Virus record (IMG/VR): IMGVR_UViG_2541047784_000014
Source: a virus
Taxonomy: Duplodnaviria > Heunggongvirae > Uroviricota > Caudoviricetes
Strand: one strand, 5' to 3'
Length of the DNA stretch: 39,296 bases
The notes under the pieces were generated by a model. That model saw only the letters and a program-made list of their open reading frames with translations, was not told the DNA's origin and searched no databases. Every line of letters starts with the position of its first letter. Position 1 is the stretch's first letter. A program made the position numbers and the translations under genes. Of this stretch, positions 3,316 to 34,100 are shown piece after piece.

Positions 3316-6072
3316 TTAGCTACTTTCAAGCATTGCAAGACGTGATTCTATTTTTTCGATTCTTCTACGCAAATAAGCTGACTCAAGCCATAAACACTGG
3401 TCAGTACGGATACCCCACCTATTTCCAGCCTTGCAAACCAGAGTTCGCTCTTCTGTTTCGTATTCTTCTTCCATCTCAATTTCGACGCCATCCACAACTT
3501 TAGTGATCATCCTTACCGCCATCACTGGCGCGTATTTATCATCCCATTCATCGTAACAGAGAAGGCCAAATCTGGTTCCATCAATCCCATGCGCGAGGAA
3601 AGTGTCTCTCACTTGTTGTGCTATAACACCAAAATGCCAGCGGGCACCATCTCCCTTTTCCCTGACGGCATCAAGCCAGCGAAAAGCTACAATCCTGATA
3701 TCTCCCCATGCATCCAGAATTGCATCACCTTCATAACCACGAGACATATACAAGCTGAGCTCACTTGTACTAATCGGTTCACTTTTTTCTCTACCATCTG
3801 ATGTGTTTATCGAACCGTTCGCAGAATAAACCTGTGCCCATCTAAATGATGGTGCACCAAGAGATTTGCTGTTATCAATAATTGGTGAAAAATTACCTTT
3901 AATGGCAATATTTCCAGAGTCGCCGAATATATTAATAACTGCAGAGTCATCACCATGGTTTTTTACGCTTAAGTTTCTTGATGAAATATTTATATCTTTG
4001 TTATATCCACTAACATTAATCCATCTTTTACCATCAATGTGATACCCGTAAATATTTCCGTCTGATTGTTCGTCAGGTGACTCTCTAAGAACAATAGCAT
4101 CTGCTCCAGACGACCATTGTATTTTTGTATCTGTAGGCCTCCAGTTCTTTATAATGAACGAACCATCAGTAAACTCCGTTTTTATTTGTCTATTGTCTAC
4201 AAATGCGTCTCTTGGTTTAAACTCACTTGTGTTAACGCTGCTCTGAAGATCAGAAGCAAAAAATCTAAGATTTCCTGTATAACCCTGAGTCTCGGTCTGG
4301 TTATACGCAATCATAATTCCATTTTCAAACTCAGATGATGTTATTTTAACATCACGGCAATCACCAAAAATGCAATTTCCTTTATCAAATGTTGTTTGAG
4401 CTTTGAATTTATCAAACCTTAAATTACGAACAGGGAAACCATCAACCTCTAATGCAAAGGATGCAGGAAGGCCAAAGTATTCTGATGGCTTACCTGATGT
4501 ATGATCAAGAGTAGTGGCTACTGTATTCTCAAAAACAGTCCCGCTAAAATTATTACCAATTGACGGAAACCTGATTACACTTATTGTACCTTGTATTTCA
4601 GGAGAAATACCAGATAGTGTGATGTTAGCTCCATCAAATGATGCATCTGAATACGTATATACTGATTCACTGCCAGCAATTTTAAACTGTTTAACTGAAG
4701 TTATTCTCATCGACTTTTTATGTTTAAATGTCACTGAGCTTTCAGTATTACTTACAAGATCAATCTGAGGGCTATTCCTTATCGCGATCCCTGACTGGAC
4801 ATAAACGTTATTAAAGTGCGTTTTTTCAGGATTTCCCTTCATTGAAAGGCTCCCGTCATTTTCTGTCAGTAGTAGTCCTTTTACCCTCCAATAGCCGACA
4901 ATCTGTACGTTATCAATAACTGAATCACAGCTATCGTATACATGCAACCCTATATCCCAGTCATCACCCAATGAATAAGAATCAGGGTTATTGTATCCTT
5001 CAATACCATTTTTACTTACCATTATTCTCAGGTTGCGTAACTGTGATGCCCTGTTGATACTAACAGCTACGCTCATGGCTTTTGGTGTAGCAGGAGTAAC
5101 ACCTACAGAATCTTCATTTGTAAACTCAGTGAACTTACAAGATATCCCTTCAACAATTTTAATTGGTCTTTCATTAGAGATGTTAAAAAAATATTTGTTT
5201 TTTTCTCCATCACCAGTAAATACAAGATGGGTTCCTTTACTCCAACTTTTTAATAATCTTTCAGGCGCTGGTCTATATGTATCCCAATAATCAATGCCAT
5301 CACCAATTAAAGACACTCCAGGAGGCACATCTATGTTCTTAGAAATCATCCATTTACCTGCAGGTATTCTAACGACACTTGCACCAGAATTTATCGCATT
5401 AATTAACCATTCAGACGCATCAACTTCAAAATTTAATGCAGCATATCTTTGCTCAAACGGAACAAAATCAAGAGCGTTAACGTTATCCCGCATCTTATCC
5501 TGGAACGTTCGGTATACTGCTCCAGAACCATACTGAATAAACCAACCAAAACCACCAACAACTCCGGCGATTGCAGCATCAACATAATTACGCATTGAGC
5601 GATTATTTACAGCATCCTGCTCAAGTGATGGATCTGCAAGGTTAGAAATTCTGTTTTGCTTTGCATCGTAATATTTTGCAAGCAAAGATGGTTTCATCAA
5701 TGCACGTCTGAACCACCCAAAACATTGCTGGATCAGCATCGTCAGGTAGTCAAAAGCATCTTCATGCACTTCGGGGAAAAATTTTCCCTGATTGCGAAGG
5801 TCTGTCTCCTGCACTACATCAAGCACACGATCTATCGTAATTCGCCATCCAGCAGCAAGCGGCGACGGAAGAACAACAGAACCGCCACTATAAGTGCCCG
5901 CCCCAGTTACCGTATAACCGGTATCCAGAACCAATTCTGTTACGTTCCCGTTCAGGTCAGACACCTGAACAACCAGGTCGGATTTTTTGAAAATACGGAA
6001 GGTATACGGAAATGATGTCGTAGCGCCGTTACCGGTGTATTCGTTGTGGTCAACTTCGGTTGAGACCGTCAT
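3316..6072 (-). CDS. Tailspike / tail fibre with T7 gp17-like N-terminal tail-attachment domain and C-terminal S74-type intramolecular chaperone domain
   Basis: GGAG 9 nt before the ATG; N-terminus (YTGNGATTSFPYTFRIF..DLVV) resembles the T7 tail-fibre N-terminal domain; AT-rich central receptor-binding region; C-terminus carries SDGREK and HFGVIAQQV motifs typical of auto-cleaving chaperone domains. Confidence 0.85.
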   Translation of the reverse strand: MTVSTEVDHNEYTGNGATTSFPYTFRIFKKSDLVVQVSDLNGNVTELVLDTGYTVTGAGTYSGGSVVLPSPLAAGWRITIDRVLDVVQETDLRNQGKFFPEVHEDAFDYLTMLIQQCFGWFRRALMKPSLLAKYYDAKQNRISNLADPSLEQDAVNNRSMRNYVDAAIAGVVGGFGWFIQYGSGAVYRTFQDKMRDNVNALDFVPFEQRYAALNFEVDASEWLINAINSGASVVRIPAGKWMISKNIDVPPGVSLIGDGIDYWDTYRPAPERLLKSWSKGTHLVFTGDGEKNKYFFNISNERPIKIVEGISCKFTEFTNEDSVGVTPATPKAMSVAVSINRASQLRNLRIMVSKNGIEGYNNPDSYSLGDDWDIGLHVYDSCDSVIDNVQIVGYWRVKGLLLTENDGSLSMKGNPEKTHFNNVYVQSGIAIRNSPQIDLVSNTESSVTFKHKKSMRITSVKQFKIAGSESVYTYSDASFDGANITLSGISPEIQGTISVIRFPSIGNNFSGTVFENTVATTLDHTSGKPSEYFGLPASFALEVDGFPVRNLRFDKFKAQTTFDKGNCIFGDCRDVKITSSEFENGIMIAYNQTETQGYTGNLRFFASDLQSSVNTSEFKPRDAFVDNRQIKTEFTDGSFIIKNWRPTDTKIQWSSGADAIVLRESPDEQSDGNIYGYHIDGKRWINVSGYNKDINISSRNLSVKNHGDDSAVINIFGDSGNIAIKGNFSPIIDNSKSLGAPSFRWAQVYSANGSINTSDGREKSEPISTSELSLYMSRGYEGDAILDAWGDIRIVAFRWLDAVREKGDGARWHFGVIAQQVRDTFLAHGIDGTRFGLLCYDEWDDKYAPVMAVRMITKVVDGVEIEMEEEYETEERTLVCKAGNRWGIRTDQCLWLESAYLRRRIEKIESRLAMLESS

Positions 6073-6175
6073 GTTAAATCTCCAGATAGTCGCAGCACCC
6101 GTTGCGCCGCATATCTGGTTATTCTATTACCTGAAAAACCACATATGGATAGATAATCCATAAATACGAAAAGAT

Positions 6176-6192
6176 ATTACCTTTCAGGTAAT
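6176..6192. promoter_or_regulatory. Dyad operator-like site ATTACCTTTCAGGTAAT
   Basis: Perfect 6-bp inverted arms around a 5-bp spacer; member of a motif family found at about twelve intergenic sites; sits between the tailspike start and the LexA-box promoter. Confidence 0.5.
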
Positions 6193-6230
6193 TTGCAAAA
6201 CGTGCTGGATAGCAAACAAATTATTTGCTA

Positions 6231-6246
6231 CTGTATAAATATACAG
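6231..6246. promoter_or_regulatory. LexA (SOS) box CTGTATAAATATACAG
   Basis: CTGT-N8-ACAG with an AT-rich centre, near-identical to the E. coli consensus TACTGTATATATATACAGTA; 22 nt upstream of the ATG at 6268; an internal TATAAAT could be the -10 element. Confidence 0.7.
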
Positions 6247-6267
6247 TTATTGCATGGAGAAGATAAG

Positions 6268-6525
6268 ATGCAGCAGTATCACTATCCACTGGAAGACGGA
6301 TTTACCGAAAGGATTCACACGCCGGGAGGCGTCAGGTCACTGGTGGAGGGATCGCACTTGATGAAATTACTCCGGGATCTCGATAAGGATGGATTTAATG
6401 TCGATGGCCCACTTGCCGAACTGACTGCACTGATTAACTACGTCACCAGCTCACAGATGTCTATGCAGGATCTGCAAACACATCTCGACTATTGTGCCGA
6501 ACAATTACGAAAGCAAACCAGATAA
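6268..6525 (+). CDS. Small antirepressor-like protein, paralog of the C-terminal domain of the adjacent Bro-N antirepressor
   Basis: ATG with GGAG 10 nt upstream; residues TPGGVRSLVEGSHLMKLLRDL...DLQTHLDYCAEQ parallel SPSGVLGLTENSLLMNLLNQL...DIQTHAEYINDK at the end of the 6839-7531 product; directly downstream of the LexA box. Confidence 0.6.
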   Translation: MQQYHYPLEDGFTERIHTPGGVRSLVEGSHLMKLLRDLDKDGFNVDGPLAELTALINYVTSSQMSMQDLQTHLDYCAEQLRKQTR

Positions 6526-6555
6526 GGTTTGCAATTACCAAGTGGAGTGCTTATA

Positions 6556-6572
6556 TTTACCTTTGCGGTAAA
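6556..6572. promoter_or_regulatory. Dyad operator-like site TTTACCTTTGCGGTAAA
   Basis: Same motif family; nested in a longer inverted repeat GGAGTGC...GCACTCC (6544-6587). Confidence 0.45.
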
Positions 6573-6664
6573 TTTACATCGCACTCCTCTTGTGCCATAG
6601 TAATCGGGCACTGGCAAAATCCAGTGCCGGGATTGGTCTCCCGGATTACTACAGAGGCACATAT

Positions 6665-6684
6665 GCCGCATAAGCGGTTTTTTT
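6665..6684 (+). terminator. Putative Rho-independent terminator
   Basis: Short hairpin CCGC-ataa-GCGG followed by seven T; preceded by a stable hairpin GGCACTGG-caaaat-CCAGTGCC (6607-6628). Confidence 0.45.
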
Positions 6685-6838
6685 ATGTGTAAAGCGCACC
6701 TATTCTATGGTGGGCTGTGTGGGGGCACCGAAAGGTGCGCCGGGTTCCTTTGTAGCCGGTAAGACCAACTCTGCACAGTTCACCACCATCTGATTGGTCT
6801 CAGCGGTGGTGATTAACCTAACTACAAAGGTGATCGCC

Positions 6839-7531
6839 ATGAATACCAAACCTTCCATCTTTTCCTTTGAGTCATCCTGCCAGATCCGTATGTTCATGAT
6901 TGACGGAGAACCTTGGTTTGTCACCAAAGATGTGTGCAATGCTTTGAATATTGATGTTACACAAGCGAGAAAACTTGATAAAAAAGGCTGGAACAAAAAG
7001 GGGCTGTATTCAATACAGACCCCTGGTGGAATACAAGAACTATCCATCGTTTCAGAATCAGGTCTCTACATCCTTATTCTGCGTTGCAAAGAGGCTATGA
7101 CAGAGGGAACGAGAGCATTCAGATTTCTTGAATGGGTTACAGGTGAGGTTCTTCCTCAGATCCGCCGCACCGGAAGTTACATTAAAAACTCGCTCCCGCA
7201 GGAAGAACGCATAAAGATGGTTGCCGACCAGGTAGCCAACGCCACGGCGTCAGCAGTAATGCAGGCGATGAAGATAGAGAACAAAACCTACAGTGCCCCG
7301 CTGAAGCCCGGCTACCGCAGCCTGATTCACTCGCCGTCTGGTGTTCTCGGCCTGACGGAGAACTCACTGCTGATGAATCTGCTGAACCAGTTACAGGAAG
7401 ACGGGCACGACGTATCGGGCGCGGCGGCGGAGCTGACCACCATGTTCTGCTACATCGTCGGTGTGAGTAAATGCCTGCGTGATATCCAGACGCACGCGGA
7501 GTACATCAACGACAAGGCTGGGTTCTTCTGA
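6839..7531 (+). CDS. Antirepressor with Bro-N domain
   Basis: Start set at the ATG (MNTKPSIFSF...) with AAGGTG 8 nt upstream; N-terminus has the Bro-N pattern (F.F......R....DGEPWF.A.DV...L); C-terminal domain is paralogous to the 6268-6525 product. Confidence 0.8.
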   Translation: MNTKPSIFSFESSCQIRMFMIDGEPWFVTKDVCNALNIDVTQARKLDKKGWNKKGLYSIQTPGGIQELSIVSESGLYILILRCKEAMTEGTRAFRFLEWVTGEVLPQIRRTGSYIKNSLPQEERIKMVADQVANATASAVMQAMKIENKTYSAPLKPGYRSLIHSPSGVLGLTENSLLMNLLNQLQEDGHDVSGAAAELTTMFCYIVGVSKCLRDIQTHAEYINDKAGFF

Positions 7532-7596
7532 CGGGCGGCGGCACATGGATGTGCCTTTAAAATAATCATTGGCGATGTGATGTAGATTCGCGTAAT

Positions 7597-7613
7597 ATTA
7601 CCTTAAAGGTAAA
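7597..7613. promoter_or_regulatory. Dyad operator-like site ATTACCTTAAAGGTAAA
   Basis: Same motif family; 26 nt upstream of the ATG at 7639, close to its strong ribosome-binding site. Confidence 0.45.
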
Positions 7614-7638
7614 CCATGTGTTTACATGAGGAGGAGAT

Positions 7639-7848
7639 ATGGGATTTTGGTTCGCTCGTACAAAAACGAGGGATAATGCACCCAGCCCTCAGGCAAAAAA
7701 TGCAGAAGTTCCGGCGTCAGCGCAGGTTAACAAGCGTGGTGGAGTATATATCTCATCACAGCAAATTTCTGAGCTTCCTGAGGTTAAGGAGATGCGTCGT
7801 CTCGCTGCTGCAATTGTTAAACAGGATCTTGCCACTGTAAGGAAGTAG
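7639..7848 (+). CDS. Hypothetical small protein (69 aa), first gene of an accessory two-gene operon
   Basis: ATG preceded by GAGGAGGAG; stop TAG overlaps the GTG of the next gene (TAGTG). Confidence 0.6.
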   Translation: MGFWFARTKTRDNAPSPQAKNAEVPASAQVNKRGGVYISSQQISELPEVKEMRRLAAAIVKQDLATVRK

Positions 7849-8714
7849 TGTTGCTAGCTCTTCTAATTATCCCAATCCTGGTTAGCGGTTATATTATGAT
7901 AACCGCTAACCAGTATCATTATTTCCGTTTATACCGACACGAAGGCCAGCTTCTTTATATGAAAGTAGCGGCACTAGGTACATATTGCCTTGTTGCATCA
8001 GTAATAATTGCAGCCGCTATAAAATATAAATGGCCTGATTTTCACCTAGTTCACGATATGGTGGAAACTTTTAATGTAACATCAAAACCAGAAACAGATA
8101 GAATTTACATGTGGCTGCTTCTTCTCTCAGCCACATCCATTTGCTTCTCTTTGTGTTATGTGTCTGTTGTGTGGGTGAAAGATTTTCTTCTTGGTTGTTT
8201 TTATAAACGTGATATTTACGAGCAAAAAACAGAGGCAATGAAGGCCAGAGTACTGCGAAAAACTTACTCGCAAGGTTCTTTAGACTTACTATTGCTTGAT
8301 GCTATTGAATCGGATCCTAAACGACCAATGCTGATTACTTTATCATCAAACAAAGTGTATGTTGGAATAATAAATGGTTCTGGTGAACCAACGGAAAATC
8401 AGGGTCCGCATCAGCACATATCTTTTGTTCCTTTAATGTCAGGATACAGGAACAAAGAAAACTTATCTGTCACATTCACTAATGCTTATCCAGGAGAAAT
8501 ACAGGTCAAGCGGACTGCAGCAATAAGAGGAATTAGCAGAAAGAAAGTGCCAGGACTTGAGATCATGGTGTCTATTGACGAAATAAGTTATATATCATGG
8601 TTTGATTTTGAAGTATATAAAGCAACAAATAACAAAGTAGAATCCAGGGGGCACGTTATTCGTGTTACCAAAAATGGAAGAAATATATATCAAAGAAATA
8701 GCAAAAAAGAATAG
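7848..8714 (+). CDS. Hypothetical inner-membrane protein (about 3 N-terminal TM segments plus a roughly 170-aa soluble domain); candidate superinfection-exclusion or abortive-infection factor
   Basis: Long AT-rich ORF with hydrophobic N-terminus, translationally coupled to the 69-aa gene and followed by a strong terminator. Start uncertain (GTG 7848, TTG 7851 or ATG 7896). Function is inference only. Confidence 0.65.
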   Translation: MLLALLIIPILVSGYIMITANQYHYFRLYRHEGQLLYMKVAALGTYCLVASVIIAAAIKYKWPDFHLVHDMVETFNVTSKPETDRIYMWLLLLSATSICFSLCYVSVVWVKDFLLGCFYKRDIYEQKTEAMKARVLRKTYSQGSLDLLLLDAIESDPKRPMLITLSSNKVYVGIINGSGEPTENQGPHQHISFVPLMSGYRNKENLSVTFTNAYPGEIQVKRTAAIRGISRKKVPGLEIMVSIDEISYISWFDFEVYKATNNKVESRGHVIRVTKNGRNIYQRNSKKE

Positions 8715-8812: not shown

Positions 8813-9262
8813 CTACTTGCGAAATCTTTCTTTACCCTTCCAGCCAGTAGATGTTAGTTCAGGATGAATGGTTCCCAATATAAAGCCAACCATAGCGGAG
8901 CGAGGATCTTCTATTTTATCCGTTAATTCTTCGGCATAACTCACAGGCAACCAAGCAACAAGATCACCAATCCTCAGCTTTGGTCCTTTGCTGTAAGATG
9001 AATCGGCAATAACAAAAAATCCACCATCAGCTGAGCACACCTTCAGCATTGCCCTTTGTCTTCCAGAATCTAGCAAAACTGGCTGTTCCCCACTTGGACC
9101 AGGTATGATGATGGCTGGCATTGGTTTATTGGCTGAAAGGCTTGTGTCAAGATACTTACACGCATACTCAAAAGCTGAAAAGTTATCCTTAAAGATAAGA
9201 GGTTGAATTTTATTGCTAACCTCCTTACCACCGATTAATCTGTTGATCATCTTCTTGAACAT
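8813..9262 (-). CDS. Hypothetical protein (about 149 aa)
   Basis: ORF with in-frame ATG codons at 9262 and 9250 (the track start is a GTG at 9271); moderately AT-rich; followed by palindrome and terminator. Confidence 0.55.
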   Translation of the reverse strand: MFKKMINRLIGGKEVSNKIQPLIFKDNFSAFEYACKYLDTSLSANKPMPAIIIPGPSGEQPVLLDSGRQRAMLKVCSADGGFFVIADSSYSKGPKLRIGDLVAWLPVSYAEELTDKIEDPRSAMVGFILGTIHPELTSTGWKGKERFRK

Positions 9263-9274
9263 AAAGGTCACCTA

Positions 9275-9715
9275 ATGATTAAGCCGATGCACGCTATTAC
9301 AGCTACCGTTTTGTTTATCCTACCAATTTTTTCGTTTGCAAACGACATATGTTTTAAGAATTTAATAAATGAGGATATGTGTGCACATGCAAACAAAATT
9401 GCATCAGAAGCAGGAAAGTCACTTCCCATAAAATTGAATGATAATATGTCTATTGTTTCAATAAATGCAATACTAAACAAACTTTTAGTTGTAGCGCATC
9501 TTAATTACAACAACAGCTATTTATCAAAAGTTTATAACGGTGATGTAACCTTAGAAAATAAATTAAAGAGTGTAATGCGAAATTATTCAAAATCGAGCAT
9601 TTGCTCCAACAGGCAAATGAAAGCATTTATTCACCTTGGCGGAGAGATTGAATATAGGTATGTATTTAGTGATGGCAATATATTTGATACATACGCCATC
9701 ACTAATTGTGAATAG
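9275..9715 (+). CDS. Secreted (signal-peptide) Cys-containing protein, AT-rich accessory gene
   Basis: Predicted signal peptide (probable cleavage after FSFA); 4 Cys in the mature part; very AT-rich; on the strand opposite to the flanking late genes, its stop codon abutting the convergent stop of the 1129-aa gene (TAG/CTA at 9713-9718). Confidence 0.6.
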   Translation: MIKPMHAITATVLFILPIFSFANDICFKNLINEDMCAHANKIASEAGKSLPIKLNDNMSIVSINAILNKLLVVAHLNYNNSYLSKVYNGDVTLENKLKSVMRNYSKSSICSNRQMKAFIHLGGEIEYRYVFSDGNIFDTYAITNCE

Positions 9716-25157: not shown

Positions 25158-25174
25158 ATTACCTTTCAGGTAAC
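25158..25174. promoter_or_regulatory. Dyad operator-like site ATTACCTTTCAGGTAAC
   Basis: Near-identical to the 6176-6192 site; preceded by a TTGACA hexamer (25137-25142) and a shared AACCACATA element (25107-25115). Confidence 0.45.
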
Positions 25175-25494: not shown

Positions 25495-25571
25495 GTGGCA
25501 TTAGCTCAGTTGGACAGAGCAACCGCCTTCTAAGCGGTTGGTCGCAGGTTCGAATCCTGCATGCCACGCCA
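25495..25571 (+). tRNA. tRNA-Arg, anticodon UCU
   Basis: Full cloverleaf: acceptor GTGGCAT/ATGCCAC, D-arm GCTC-AGTTGGACA-GAGC, anticodon stem ACCGC/GCGGT with loop CTTCTAA, T-arm GCAGG-TTCGAAT-CCTGC, discriminator G and encoded CCA; close to E. coli argU. Confidence 0.9.
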
Positions 25572-32995: not shown

Positions 32996-33226
32996 TCATG
33001 AGTAGAAGAAGTATGCCAGTTCTGCTTTTGAGCGCAGCCATTGTCTTGTTTTACAGGCTTTAAAAAGCCCATTCATCAATACCTTACCTGGCATTTTGCG
33101 CTTACCTGTTAAGTGAGTCTGGATATAGTGACTCGTCGTTCCGGCTTCCTGTGCGAAGGCTTCACGCTCATCCGGAGTAAGTGCAAGCCAGTGCTTTTTG
33201 AAATCGAAATGTCCGTTATCGCTCAT
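32996..33226 (-). CDS. Cro-like HTH regulator
   Basis: 76-aa helix-turn-helix protein transcribed divergently from the repressor-like gene toward the replication genes. Confidence 0.65.
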   Translation of the reverse strand: MSDNGHFDFKKHWLALTPDEREAFAQEAGTTSHYIQTHLTGKRKMPGKVLMNGLFKACKTRQWLRSKAELAYFFYS

Positions 33227-33292
33227 AGCTATTGCCTGATATTTATTTCAGATAATAAATATTCACCCATAAGGTAACAAAAATCAAGGATA

Positions 33293-33309
33293 GTTACCTA
33301 TGAGGTGCA
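33293..33309. promoter_or_regulatory. Dyad operator-like site GTTACCTATGAGGTGCA (imperfect)
   Basis: In the divergent Cro/repressor intergenic region, directly abutting the next site; a GGTAAC half-site lies at 33273-33278. Confidence 0.4.
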
Positions 33310-33326
33310 TTTACCTGTTGGGTAAT
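33310..33326. promoter_or_regulatory. Dyad operator-like site TTTACCTGTTGGGTAAT
   Basis: Near-perfect dyad in the divergent Cro/repressor intergenic region. Confidence 0.5.
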
Positions 33327-33380: not shown

Positions 33381-33965
33381 ATGAAAAGTATCCAGGACGT
33401 CCGCAGGCAAAATCTCAACGACTTGATCGACCGTGAATTCAATGGTGTTCAGACGCGGATGGCAGAAAAACTTGGAACTCAGGCAAATCTGGTAAACCGC
33501 TGGGCTCTTGGCAAGAAGGTTATCGGCGACCAGGTTGCGCGAAAAATTGAAGCTGCCGCCAATAAACCCCGTAACTGGCTTGATATCGATCGCTCGCTTT
33601 CTCAGGAAGGTTTTCAGCCTGTCGGCCCAAGCGACATTGGTCAGCTGGCGGCTCACAACCTGGAACGCTGGATGAGCGAAAGCCGCGACCTTTCAACGCA
33701 GGGAAAACTTCACCGCGCATCCGGCGTCGCCCAGGTGACAATCAGTCGCCTGTTAAACAATGAGGTCAGCGTTTCCATTTCCACCCTGGAGAATGTTGCA
33801 TCCGCATTCGGGCGTCACGGATATGAACTACTGATTCACCCGCACGACCCTGCGACTATCAACTATGACCGCTCGCGCTACGCATTGTTACCCGAAACCG
33901 AGAAAGCAAAGATCGAAAGTTACATTGAATTTGTCATCAACCAGAACGAAAAAAGCAAACAATAA
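33381..33965 (+). CDS. Repressor-like protein with two predicted HTH regions and no recognisable S24 peptidase domain
   Basis: HTH-like segments near residues 25-45 and 115-135; no Ala-Gly/Ser-Lys autocleavage signature seen by eye; cI-like position; followed by a strong terminator. Confidence 0.7.
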   Translation: MKSIQDVRRQNLNDLIDREFNGVQTRMAEKLGTQANLVNRWALGKKVIGDQVARKIEAAANKPRNWLDIDRSLSQEGFQPVGPSDIGQLAAHNLERWMSESRDLSTQGKLHRASGVAQVTISRLLNNEVSVSISTLENVASAFGRHGYELLIHPHDPATINYDRSRYALLPETEKAKIESYIEFVINQNEKSKQ

Positions 33966-34083: not shown

Positions 34084-34100
34084 ATTACCTCAACGGTAAC
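34084..34100. promoter_or_regulatory. Dyad operator-like site ATTACCTCAACGGTAAC
   Basis: Second site of the pL-like region, about 20 bp downstream of TTGACA. Confidence 0.45.

Follow-up and report, generated by a model that had tools for sequence, protein, structure and literature searches.

The stretch of DNA analysed here, called the window in what follows, is the 39,296-nucleotide IMG/VR virus record IMGVR_UViG_2541047784_000014, a prophage of the epsilon15/phiV10 type of temperate podovirus (Uetakevirus). Our subject is the locus that lies between its divergent tail-fibre gene (3316-6072, minus strand) and the remaining structural genes. The locus begins with a LexA (SOS) box in front of ant, a gene for a small antirepressor, and continues through an operator-type dyad placed between two promoter-like sites, an isrK-type small RNA and a C4 antisense RNA to a second antirepressor gene, whose product joins a Bro-N domain to a C-terminal domain resembling Ant itself (Table 1). 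A sequence-only reading of the same DNA had picked out the box and the two protein-coding genes; what it missed are the predicted operator-flanked promoter, isrK and C4 that lie between them.

Table 1. Features of the antirepressor locus and of the repressor region, in window coordinates
Feature	Position	Strand	Description
Operator-type dyad TTACCTTTCAGGTAA	6177-6191		Tail-fibre/ant intergenic region
Predicted ant promoter	6206-6234	+	-35 TGGATA (6206-6211), 17 nt, -10 TACTGT (6229-6234)
LexA (SOS) box	6229-6248		Core CTGT-N8-ACAG, 6231-6246
ant	6268-6525	+	85-aa antirepressor, orthologue of SPC32H Ant
Second operator-type dyad TTACCTTTGCGGTAA	6557-6571		Between ant and the Bro-N gene, between two promoter-like sites
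isrK-type small RNA	6608-6684	+	Rfam RF01394, full length, 74.7 bits (gathering 50)
C4 antisense RNA	6703-6790	+	Rfam RF01695, positions 1-87 of 87, 78.6 bits (gathering 45)
C4 target sites in the Bro-N leader	6792-6830	+	a2 GAUUGGUCUC (6792-6801), b2 CUACAAAGG (6822-6830)
Second antirepressor gene	6839-7531	+	Bro-N domain (residues 16-106) and Ant-like C-terminal domain (about 149-225)
Third operator-type dyad TTACCTTAAAGGTAA	7598-7612		Preceded by TAATAT; upstream of 7639-7848 and 7848-8714
Operator cluster	33263-33325		Between cro-like gene (32996-33226, minus strand) and rep
rep	33381-33965	+	Prophage repressor, presumed target of both antirepressors

The interval 6073-7640 is 92-98% identical to its counterparts in Escherichia phages EC.W1-9, ZX5, TL-2011b and phiV10, and is matched in 543 of 5,426 complete E. 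coli genomes. The conservation of the locus was followed through 94 loci, made up of the window, eight phage records, five genomes (a scan of species-representative genomes gave five loci) and 80 IMG/VR contigs. These contigs are the best 80 of 351 matches and encode an Ant that is 99-100% identical in nearly all cases; the sample is phylogenetically unbalanced, and the counts given below are weighted to E. coli-type phages. At least 130 nt upstream of ant is available in 89 loci and at least 2.5 kb downstream in 79. C4 is present in 66 of these 79, a gene with an Ant-like C-terminal domain lies downstream of ant in 71, and the two occur together in 66. The window's order of ant, isrK, C4 and Bro-N::Ant-like gene recurs in seven related phage records (Escherichia, Enterobacter and Klebsiella), which brings the genomes with the complete module to eight, the window counted in; Salmonella phages SPC32H and epsilon15 are without the isrK-C4-Bro-N part.

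The product of ant has a single match in the PDB, chain E of entry 5D50 ('Anti-repressor protein'; E 4e-47, residues 2-84), and is 88% identical (tblastn) to the protein labelled 'ant: anti-repressor protein' in GenBank for SPC32H, where the gene is annotated in the equivalent slot, adjoining the tail-spike gene. Among PHROGs it matches only 450 (E 9e-48), 15539 and 1760; Pfam, NCBIfam and PADLOC gave no family above threshold. In these searches, which also took in the downstream cargo genes, a DUF724 match under the cutoff (E 0.0038) was dismissed as noise. The open reading frame (ORF) runs from an ATG at 6268 to a stop at 6525, with GGAG at 6256-6259, 8 nt upstream of the ATG, and it is intact, at 58-100% identity, in phages of Escherichia, Salmonella, Enterobacter and Klebsiella; Citrobacter, Kluyvera and Cronobacter have homologues as well. 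The databases label the small protein 'hypothetical protein' or 'unknown function'. The protein encoded at 33381-33965 matches 5D50 chain A and 5D4Z, 'Repressor' (E 3.5e-42), and these two sets of matches are to Ant and Rep of Salmonella phage SPC32H. Judged by homology, the small gene is the E. coli version of that characterised antirepressor. Kim and Ryu in 2013 (J Virol 87:11775) and Kim et al. in 2016 (PNAS 113:E2480) reportedly described a LexA-controlled Ant that inactivates a non-cleavable Rep in SPC32H, and the SPC32H authors are said to have treated Ant as distinct from 186 Tum and Gifsy GfoA/GftA. In a secondary source, Ant forms a tetramer, which attaches to two Rep dimers and thereby splits the DNA-binding Rep tetramer (PMC9638917), and a review that cites Kim & Ryu 2013 gives Ant synthesis as SOS- and LexA-dependent (PMC7380047). 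The LexA-dependent antirepressor induction proposed by the sequence-only reading is supported in its essentials, and has already been published for the orthologous SPC32H system.

The LexA box has the core CTGTATAAATATACAG. Over 20 nt (TACTGTATAAATATACAGTT) it has 18 of the 20 letters of the consensus TACTGTATATATATACAGTA and is the only match in the window at three or fewer mismatches, where 100 shuffles gave an expectation of 0, so that the box described earlier as near-consensus is indeed both near-consensus and unique in the window; the distance from its end to the ant ATG is 21 nt, one less than the 22 nt previously given. Matches to CTGT-N8-ACAG at 5051, 21146 and 25687 have spacers that contain G+C and were treated as chance. 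A LexA-type box ends 20-22 nt before the ant ATG in 86 of the 89 loci with sufficient upstream sequence, as CTGT...ACAG in 82 and as the Klebsiella-type ATGT...ACAG in four. In Klebsiella phages L007, L008 and L009 (around 2440-2475 of those records) the left half reads ATGT for CTGT (TATATGTATATACATACAGTA), and LexA control may be weaker or altered in these relatives. When the regions upstream of ant are aligned, the SPC32H box falls in the same columns as that of the window. In a comparison of 1,049 nt that takes in ant and the beginning of the tail-spike gene, SPC32H and its variant SPC32N are told apart by two bases and no more; at one of them, in the right-hand (ACAG) half of the box and aligned with 6244 of the window, SPC32N has A for C. 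The SPC32H authors reportedly tied this mutation to constitutive Ant.

The putative -10 hexamer of the ant promoter overlaps the left half of the box. The two hexamers agree with consensus at 7 of 12 positions, and a sigma-70 scan left the site below threshold and unreported; we infer its placement from conservation, the CTGGA block and the TAC/TAT-TGT block upstream of ant being invariant in nine phages.

Rep is 43% identical to SPC32H Rep over its full length and has helix-turn-helix domains only (two, HTH_3); a domain search found no peptidase S24 in it, which bears out the earlier suggestion of a repressor that is unable to autocleave. Its operator in this phage is, on the distribution of the motif, the dyad TTACC-N5-GGTAA, of which the window holds nine perfect copies and four with one mismatch where about 0.5 would be expected (for TTACCT-N4-GGTAA at up to one mismatch, 24 strand-matches against 0.48 expected). 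The copies, at 2948, 6177, 6557, 7598, 25159, 27974, 30894, 30956, 32926, 33263, 33311, 34023 and 34085, are scattered over the prophage and are mostly intergenic; they cluster in the interval that parts the cro-like gene from rep (33263, 33311) and just downstream of rep (34023, 34085). The dyad at 33263-33277 occupies the spacer of a leftward promoter, TTGTTA/TATTAT, and that at 34085 adjoins the -10 of a TTGACA/AATTAT promoter, so the dyads of the immunity region sit in classical repression positions. SPC32H has the same motif in equivalent places, including its rep/cro and ant/tail-spike intergenic regions; motif and distribution are alike despite the 43% identity of the two Rep proteins. 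An operator-like dyad had been noted just upstream of the LexA box, and it is present there, at 6177-6191 and in 88 of the 89 loci, but as one of about 13 copies in the window it is not a local feature. In the leftward direction it takes up the 16-nt spacer that separates TTGCAA (6198-6193) from TATCTT (6176-6171), which suggests a Rep-controlled promoter directed towards the tail-fibre gene.

Between E. coli and Salmonella phages the antirepressor is thus conserved at 88% and its target at 43%. Because Ant is so much better conserved than Rep, it may contact a conserved surface of the repressor, and it may cross-induce related prophages as the Gifsy antirepressors do.

The second antirepressor gene encodes a Bro-N domain (E 1.8e-13; 51.4 bits against a Pfam gathering threshold of 25.6) and falls in PHROG 130, 'anti-repressor Ant' (E 3.5e-51), as well as in PHROG 450. 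Residues 149-222 of its product are 42% identical to Ant over 74 aa (E 6e-16) and match 5D50 chain E directly (E 9e-14). Both the identification of this gene as a Bro-N antirepressor and the proposed paralogy of the small protein with its C-terminus are borne out by these matches. The protein is 80.6% identical to ORF4 of vB_EcoP_ZX5 when BLAST is run over the whole protein, and by inspection it matches ORF4 from about residue 100 on; its N-terminal Bro-N portion differs in mosaic fashion from phage to phage. When ZX5 ORF4 was overexpressed, the titre of the prophage fell from 10^9 to 10^6 and the repressor was transcribed less (PMC9782041), a shift of the phage towards lysis; the small Ant, LexA and the RNAs go unmentioned in that study (PMC9782041). 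In phiV10 (L002, 3071-3750) the Bro-N gene is frameshifted within the Ant-like domain and annotated as two ORFs, p23 and p22; this reference phage of the group may be without a functional second antirepressor, or a sequencing error may be present in the record. A homologue search with the C-terminal domain returned 33 mostly fragmentary proteins, among which there are hints, too thin for a claim of modularity, that the domain also stands alone and behind an AntA/AntB domain.

It would be too simple to see in the Bro-N gene a second SOS gene, for it has a predicted promoter of its own flanked by an operator, is preceded by isrK and C4, and has a ribosome-binding site complementary to C4. Of the two promoter-like sites, TTGCAA-17-TATATT (6529-6557) ends where the 6557 dyad begins and has a predicted start near 6564, and TTTACA-17-CATAGT, with an upstream TG (6573-6601), starts 1 nt past that dyad; the transcription start predicted for the latter, at about 6608, coincides with the beginning of the isrK model. 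The dyad is followed by TTTACA in seven of the eight module-bearing phages, and by aATATAA in phiV10. The operator lies inside a longer inverted repeat, GGAGTGC...GCACTCC, and the RNA of 6526-6607 has a predicted fold of -24.3 kcal/mol (z -3.5); in phiV10 the same palindrome is perfect, with 17-nt arms. This hairpin could affect read-through transcripts arriving from the ant promoter. In the scan, no intrinsic terminator came up from the end of ant (6525) to isrK, and the GC hairpin that directly follows ant in SPC32H is missing from the window. In TL-2011b (L005, 2780-3868) and in many IMG/VR loci an insertion of about 1 kb separates ant from isrK, and the isrK-C4-Bro-N cassette of these phages retains its own operator and promoter, which supports its being an independent transcription unit. 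The TL-2011b insertion contains an additional operator dyad, at L005 3529.

The isrK model ends in an intrinsic terminator, with a stem at 6665-6678 followed by a T-run (6665-6684 in all). Beyond it, C4 displays the segments b' (CCUUUGUAG, 6747-6755, in a loop) and a' (AAGACCAAC, 6761-6769), both of which find partners on either side. Downstream, b2 is the exact complement of b' and overlaps the Shine-Dalgarno (SD) sequence AAGGUGA (6827-6833) of the Bro-N gene, while a2 is the partner of a'; upstream, within isrK, a1 (GAUUGGUCUC, 6631-6640) is complementary to a', and b1 (CUACAGAGG, 6649-6657) pairs in the window with b' with one G-U. Whole-RNA RNAduplex predictions were uninformative, as they yield long duplexes and ignore intramolecular structure, and were replaced by duplexes of short segments and by allele comparison: cognate segments give -9 to -12 kcal/mol and non-cognate alleles -0.5 to -6.5. 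Across the 94 loci there are five b' alleles (CCTTTGTAG, CCTTTTAG, CCACTTAG, CCTACTAG and CCGTTTAG) and three a' alleles, with GACC, CGCC and TCTC cores. Every class has its complement in both isrK and the leader, an exact one save at b2 in the two CCGTTTAG-class loci, where one pair is G-U, and the a and b alleles are found reassorted in phages that otherwise hardly differ. This three-way covariation of a'/b', a1/b1 and a2/b2 is strong evidence, of the comparative kind, that the antisense interactions are functional. In the predicted fold of the long transcript, isrK is paired with the a'/b' region of C4 (-100.5 kcal/mol, z -4.6).

An ORF of 28 codons (6707-6793) overlaps C4 in frame with the Bro-N gene and has its TGA at 6791; it is without an SD sequence and ends 45 nt before the Bro-N ATG. 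In phages with ZX5-type alleles the equivalent is 37 codons long, stops 5 nt short of the antirepressor ATG and bears the annotation 'ash family protein'. We considered it as an upstream ORF like orf45 of Gifsy-1, but its length is not conserved and no SD precedes it; since the length changes with the C4 b' allele, the ORF is probably a by-product of constraints on the RNA.

These features can be assembled into a model in which the locus is an antirepressor, or secondary immunity, region, with two antirepressors that use one type of repressor-binding domain and stand behind different gates; we put the probability of this reading at about 0.8. At the first gate, host LexA bound to the box overlapping the ant promoter would keep the 85-aa Ant off in a lysogen. 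DNA damage would remove LexA, and the Ant then made would bind the C-terminal domain of the non-cleavable Rep, whose tetramers would dissociate and vacate the TTACC-N5-GGTAA operators; this part is modelled by homology on the characterised SPC32H system. The second gate is drawn from anatomy, covariation and the precedents of P1, Gifsy-1 and N15. Here the Bro-N::Ant-like gene would be transcribed from the promoters that flank the Rep operator at 6557-6571, the isrK terminator would stop most transcripts, and read-through RNA would carry C4, which, with b' on the Bro-N SD region and a' on a site 30 nt farther upstream, would block translation. Short IsrK in excess, bearing the decoys a1 and b1, should relieve that block. 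Because Rep guards the isrK promoter and no terminator separates ant from isrK, Ant made in the SOS response should also derepress the second antirepressor, a feed-forward step that would commit the prophage to induction, and the isrK-C4-Bro-N cassette could act in superinfection as well, as in P1.

A more specific version can be offered tentatively, as possible rather than probable: the paralogous antirepressors would dock on the same Rep surface as a two-stage switch, in which Ant clears Rep from the isrK promoter, a burst of IsrK titrates C4 and the second antirepressor locks induction; independently of this, C4/isrK alleles would define heteroimmunity classes among E. coli Uetakevirus prophages that are otherwise nearly identical. 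If this were true, the reassorting alleles (at least five b and at least three a) would decide which superinfecting relatives induce a lysogen. A role in superinfection and heteroimmunity, as an alternative or an addition, would fit the allele diversity equally well.

The nearest precedent for the first gate is the Ant/Rep pair of SPC32H. The Ant proteins are orthologous (88%), the Rep proteins homologous (43%) and free of a peptidase domain, the LexA box occupies an aligned position 21-22 nt before the ATG with a TTACC-N5-GGTAA dyad upstream, and the genome is likewise a Uetakevirus with the gene in the slot beside the tail-spike or tail-fibre gene. The differences are that ant stands alone in SPC32H, followed by a hairpin, whereas the window has the isrK-C4-Bro-N cassette and about 2 kb of cargo genes, and that Rep has diverged far more than Ant. 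Coliphage 186 Tum and the Gifsy antirepressors GfoA/GftA, to which the sequence-only reading compared the locus, follow the same logic of a LexA-repressed small antirepressor encoded outside the immunity region that binds a non-cleavable repressor (PMC3121763). In that respect the comparison stands, but it does not extend to the family: Ant is of the SPC32H type (PHROG 450), and among its matches (PHROG 450, 15539 and 1760) there is no family that links it to them. In Gifsy phages, moreover, the antirepressor follows a dinI homologue in an operon and Tum has a DinI-like half, and neither is seen here; the ORF list of the window and a domain search showed no DinI-like domain and no dinI neighbour.

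For the second gate, the closest likeness is to immI of P1 and P7, with its C1-controlled promoter, c4, icd and ant. In P1, C4 is released from its precursor by RNase P processing. The two C4 RNAs belong to one Rfam family; in both systems a' and b' are complementary to upstream a1/b1 and downstream a2/b2, b2 covers a ribosome-binding site, the operator of the primary repressor lies at the operon promoter and a'/b' occur in allelic specificities, and C1 operators are scattered over the P1 genome like the dyads here (P1 in part after PMC7313666). P1 differs in having icd, which has no counterpart here; in the window b2 lies directly on the SD of the antirepressor itself and a1/b1 lie within the terminated isrK small RNA, the Bro-N fusion is unrelated to P1 Ant1/2, and Rep is unrelated to C1. 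The order isrK with a leaky terminator, C4-like processed RNA, antirepressor gene is that of isrK-orf45-anrP-isrJ in Gifsy-1 (Hershko-Shalev et al. 2016, PMC4825925). In that locus, RNA that runs past the isrK terminator is a translationally silent mRNA, and short IsrK activates its translation in trans, through orf45 (PMC4825925). The predicted cis pairing between the middle of isrK and downstream RNA resembles the inactive 'structure A' of that system; in contrast to Gifsy-1, an upstream ORF for translational coupling is not conserved here, and there is no isrJ or antQ near the window locus. N15 likewise has both an SOS-regulon antirepressor, the LexA-controlled AntC, and the RNA-controlled immA (antA-icd-antB) (PMC4488713, PMC3121763), but its immA operon and antC are described separately (PMC4488713), whereas here the genes adjoin and have a homologous C-terminal domain. 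An isrK-C4 cassette beside a Bro-N gene is noted for APSE phages (PMC7313666), and isrK-C4 cassettes are also found in many Shiga toxin (Stx) phages.

Several points weigh against the two-gate model. For this prophage it is drawn from sequence, and for the SPC32H experiments from a PDB entry, GenBank labels and secondary citations. With Rep only 43% identical to its SPC32H homologue, we infer that Ant binds it here, and the binding of Rep by the Bro-N C-terminal domain is putative. The hexamers proposed for the ant promoter are weak. The direction in which IsrK would act, as an activator, is borrowed from Gifsy-1, and of orf45 of that phage there is no clear counterpart, the 6707-6793 ORF being without an SD and stopping 45 nt early. 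Moreover, the frameshift in phiV10 and the lack of the module in SPC32H and epsilon15 indicate that the second antirepressor is dispensable for the basic life cycle. Finally, with about 15 bp between it and the predicted ant -35 downstream, the 6177 operator may serve the leftward tail-fibre promoter rather than ant.

This last possibility, in which the 6177-6191 dyad represses a leftward promoter of the tail-fibre gene and ant is under LexA alone, has in our view a chance only a little short of even. Set in the 16-nt spacer that parts TTGCAA from TATCTT, the dyad has the same geometry as the 33263-33277 dyad at the leftward cro-side promoter, and its centre, about 57 bp upstream of the predicted ant start (near 6241), is poorly placed for simple occlusion; yet the leftward hexamers, at 8 of 12 consensus positions, went unreported by the promoter scan, and a Rep tetramer on DNA, as described in PMC9638917, could reach or loop to the ant promoter. 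It is unlikely, we think, that both antirepressors form a single SOS operon, with read-through from the ant promoter to the Bro-N gene, LexA as the sole gate and the RNAs merely tuning the level. The two genes lie on the same strand, 313 nt apart, and between the end of ant and isrK there is neither an intrinsic terminator nor the post-ant hairpin of SPC32H. Against such an operon stand the isrK terminator at 6665-6684 and the stable 6526-6607 hairpin (-24 kcal/mol, z -3.5) in the path of read-through, the two promoter-like sites that flank the conserved operator (6529-6601) with the isrK model beginning at the predicted start, and the 1-kb insertions of TL-2011b and many IMG/VR loci, in which the module has kept its operator and promoter.

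Whether the cassette takes part in induction at all is a separate matter. It might instead be an anti-immunity device that acts at infection, as in P1 and as P22 Ant does, without a role in the induction of the resident prophage: an incoming phage would inactivate the resident Rep unless the C4 of the resident matched, and the alleles would mark heteroimmunity groups. The reassortment of five b and three a alleles among near-identical phages is the pattern expected of immunity specificities and has a parallel in the c4 alleles of P1 and P7 (Citron & Schuster, as cited in PMC7313666); SPC32H, furthermore, induces with Ant alone, and phiV10 tolerates a frameshifted Bro-N gene. We nevertheless regard an exclusive anti-immunity role as possible but on balance doubtful, for deletion of the isrK promoter in Gifsy-1 yields no phage, so that the isrK locus contributes to induction there (PMC4825925), and the Rep operator at the cassette promoter ties the cassette to the repression state of the resident. 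The two roles are not mutually exclusive. At the other extreme, the LexA box could be a chance match in front of a decaying, functionless duplicate of the Bro-N C-terminus, a view for which the shortness of the ORF and its 'hypothetical protein' label are the only arguments. Its probability is very small indeed: no box was expected by chance, the box keeps its position in 86 of 89 loci, the ORF is intact across genera, and its orthologue has been crystallised in complex with Rep. We consider it refuted by the box statistics, the conservation, the intact homologues and the 5D50 orthologue, and return to the two-gate model as the preferred reading of the locus.

Around the locus, a few further elements deserve mention. 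Between the tail-fibre start and the ant operator, the block ATTCTATTACC-N5-AACC-N-TATATG-N-AT (6119-6150) is invariant in nine phages of four genera. It includes an operator half-site and may serve the tail-fibre gene as a late promoter or activator site. On the other side, a two-gene cassette lies directly behind the 7598 dyad: 7639-7848 (69 aa, PHROG 5739) and 7848-8714 (288 aa, PHROG 3630), the latter with an N-terminal half that by eye is hydrophobic. The pair may be cargo or early genes repressed by Rep; the cargo genes downstream of the locus, these two included, have no Pfam, NCBIfam or PADLOC matches. Two divergent genes come next, 8813-9271 (PHROG 9944) on the minus strand and 9275-9715 (PHROG 8772) on the plus strand; they are probably morons, and at their position SPC32H encodes a 46-aa membrane protein and nothing else. 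Farther away, a tRNA gene at 25495-25568 (plus strand; Rfam, 73.3 bits), with an operator dyad nearby at 25159, probably corresponds to the gene that is annotated as tRNA-Arg in SPC32H.

The LexA-Ant-Rep core of the SPC32H type was already known, and the isrK-C4-antirepressor cassette is also of a known kind, so that what the locus offers is a new combination of known parts, with precedents in SPC32H, P1, Gifsy-1 and N15, and not a new principle. A literature search turned up no description, in phiV10-type phages, of the adjacency of an SOS-controlled ant with an RNA-gated antirepressor or of reassorting C4/isrK alleles; nor did it return one of a homologous Rep-binding domain common to both antirepressors, of a Rep operator at both antirepressor promoters, or, for this phage group, of a two-stage switch or C4-allele heteroimmunity. 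Only the Bro-N protein was tested in the single functional study made on a near E. coli relative (PMC9782041). Prophages of this type are common in E. coli, and their relatives include phages of O157 and other Shiga toxin-producing E. coli strains. Linking the E. coli gene to the solved Ant-Rep complex of SPC32H mends an annotation that has so far read 'hypothetical protein', and it leads to the prediction that DNA-damaging antibiotics would induce these prophages through LexA. If the two gates operate as proposed, the locus would be a compact natural system in which an SOS signal and an RNA-based immunity signal are combined on one repressor.

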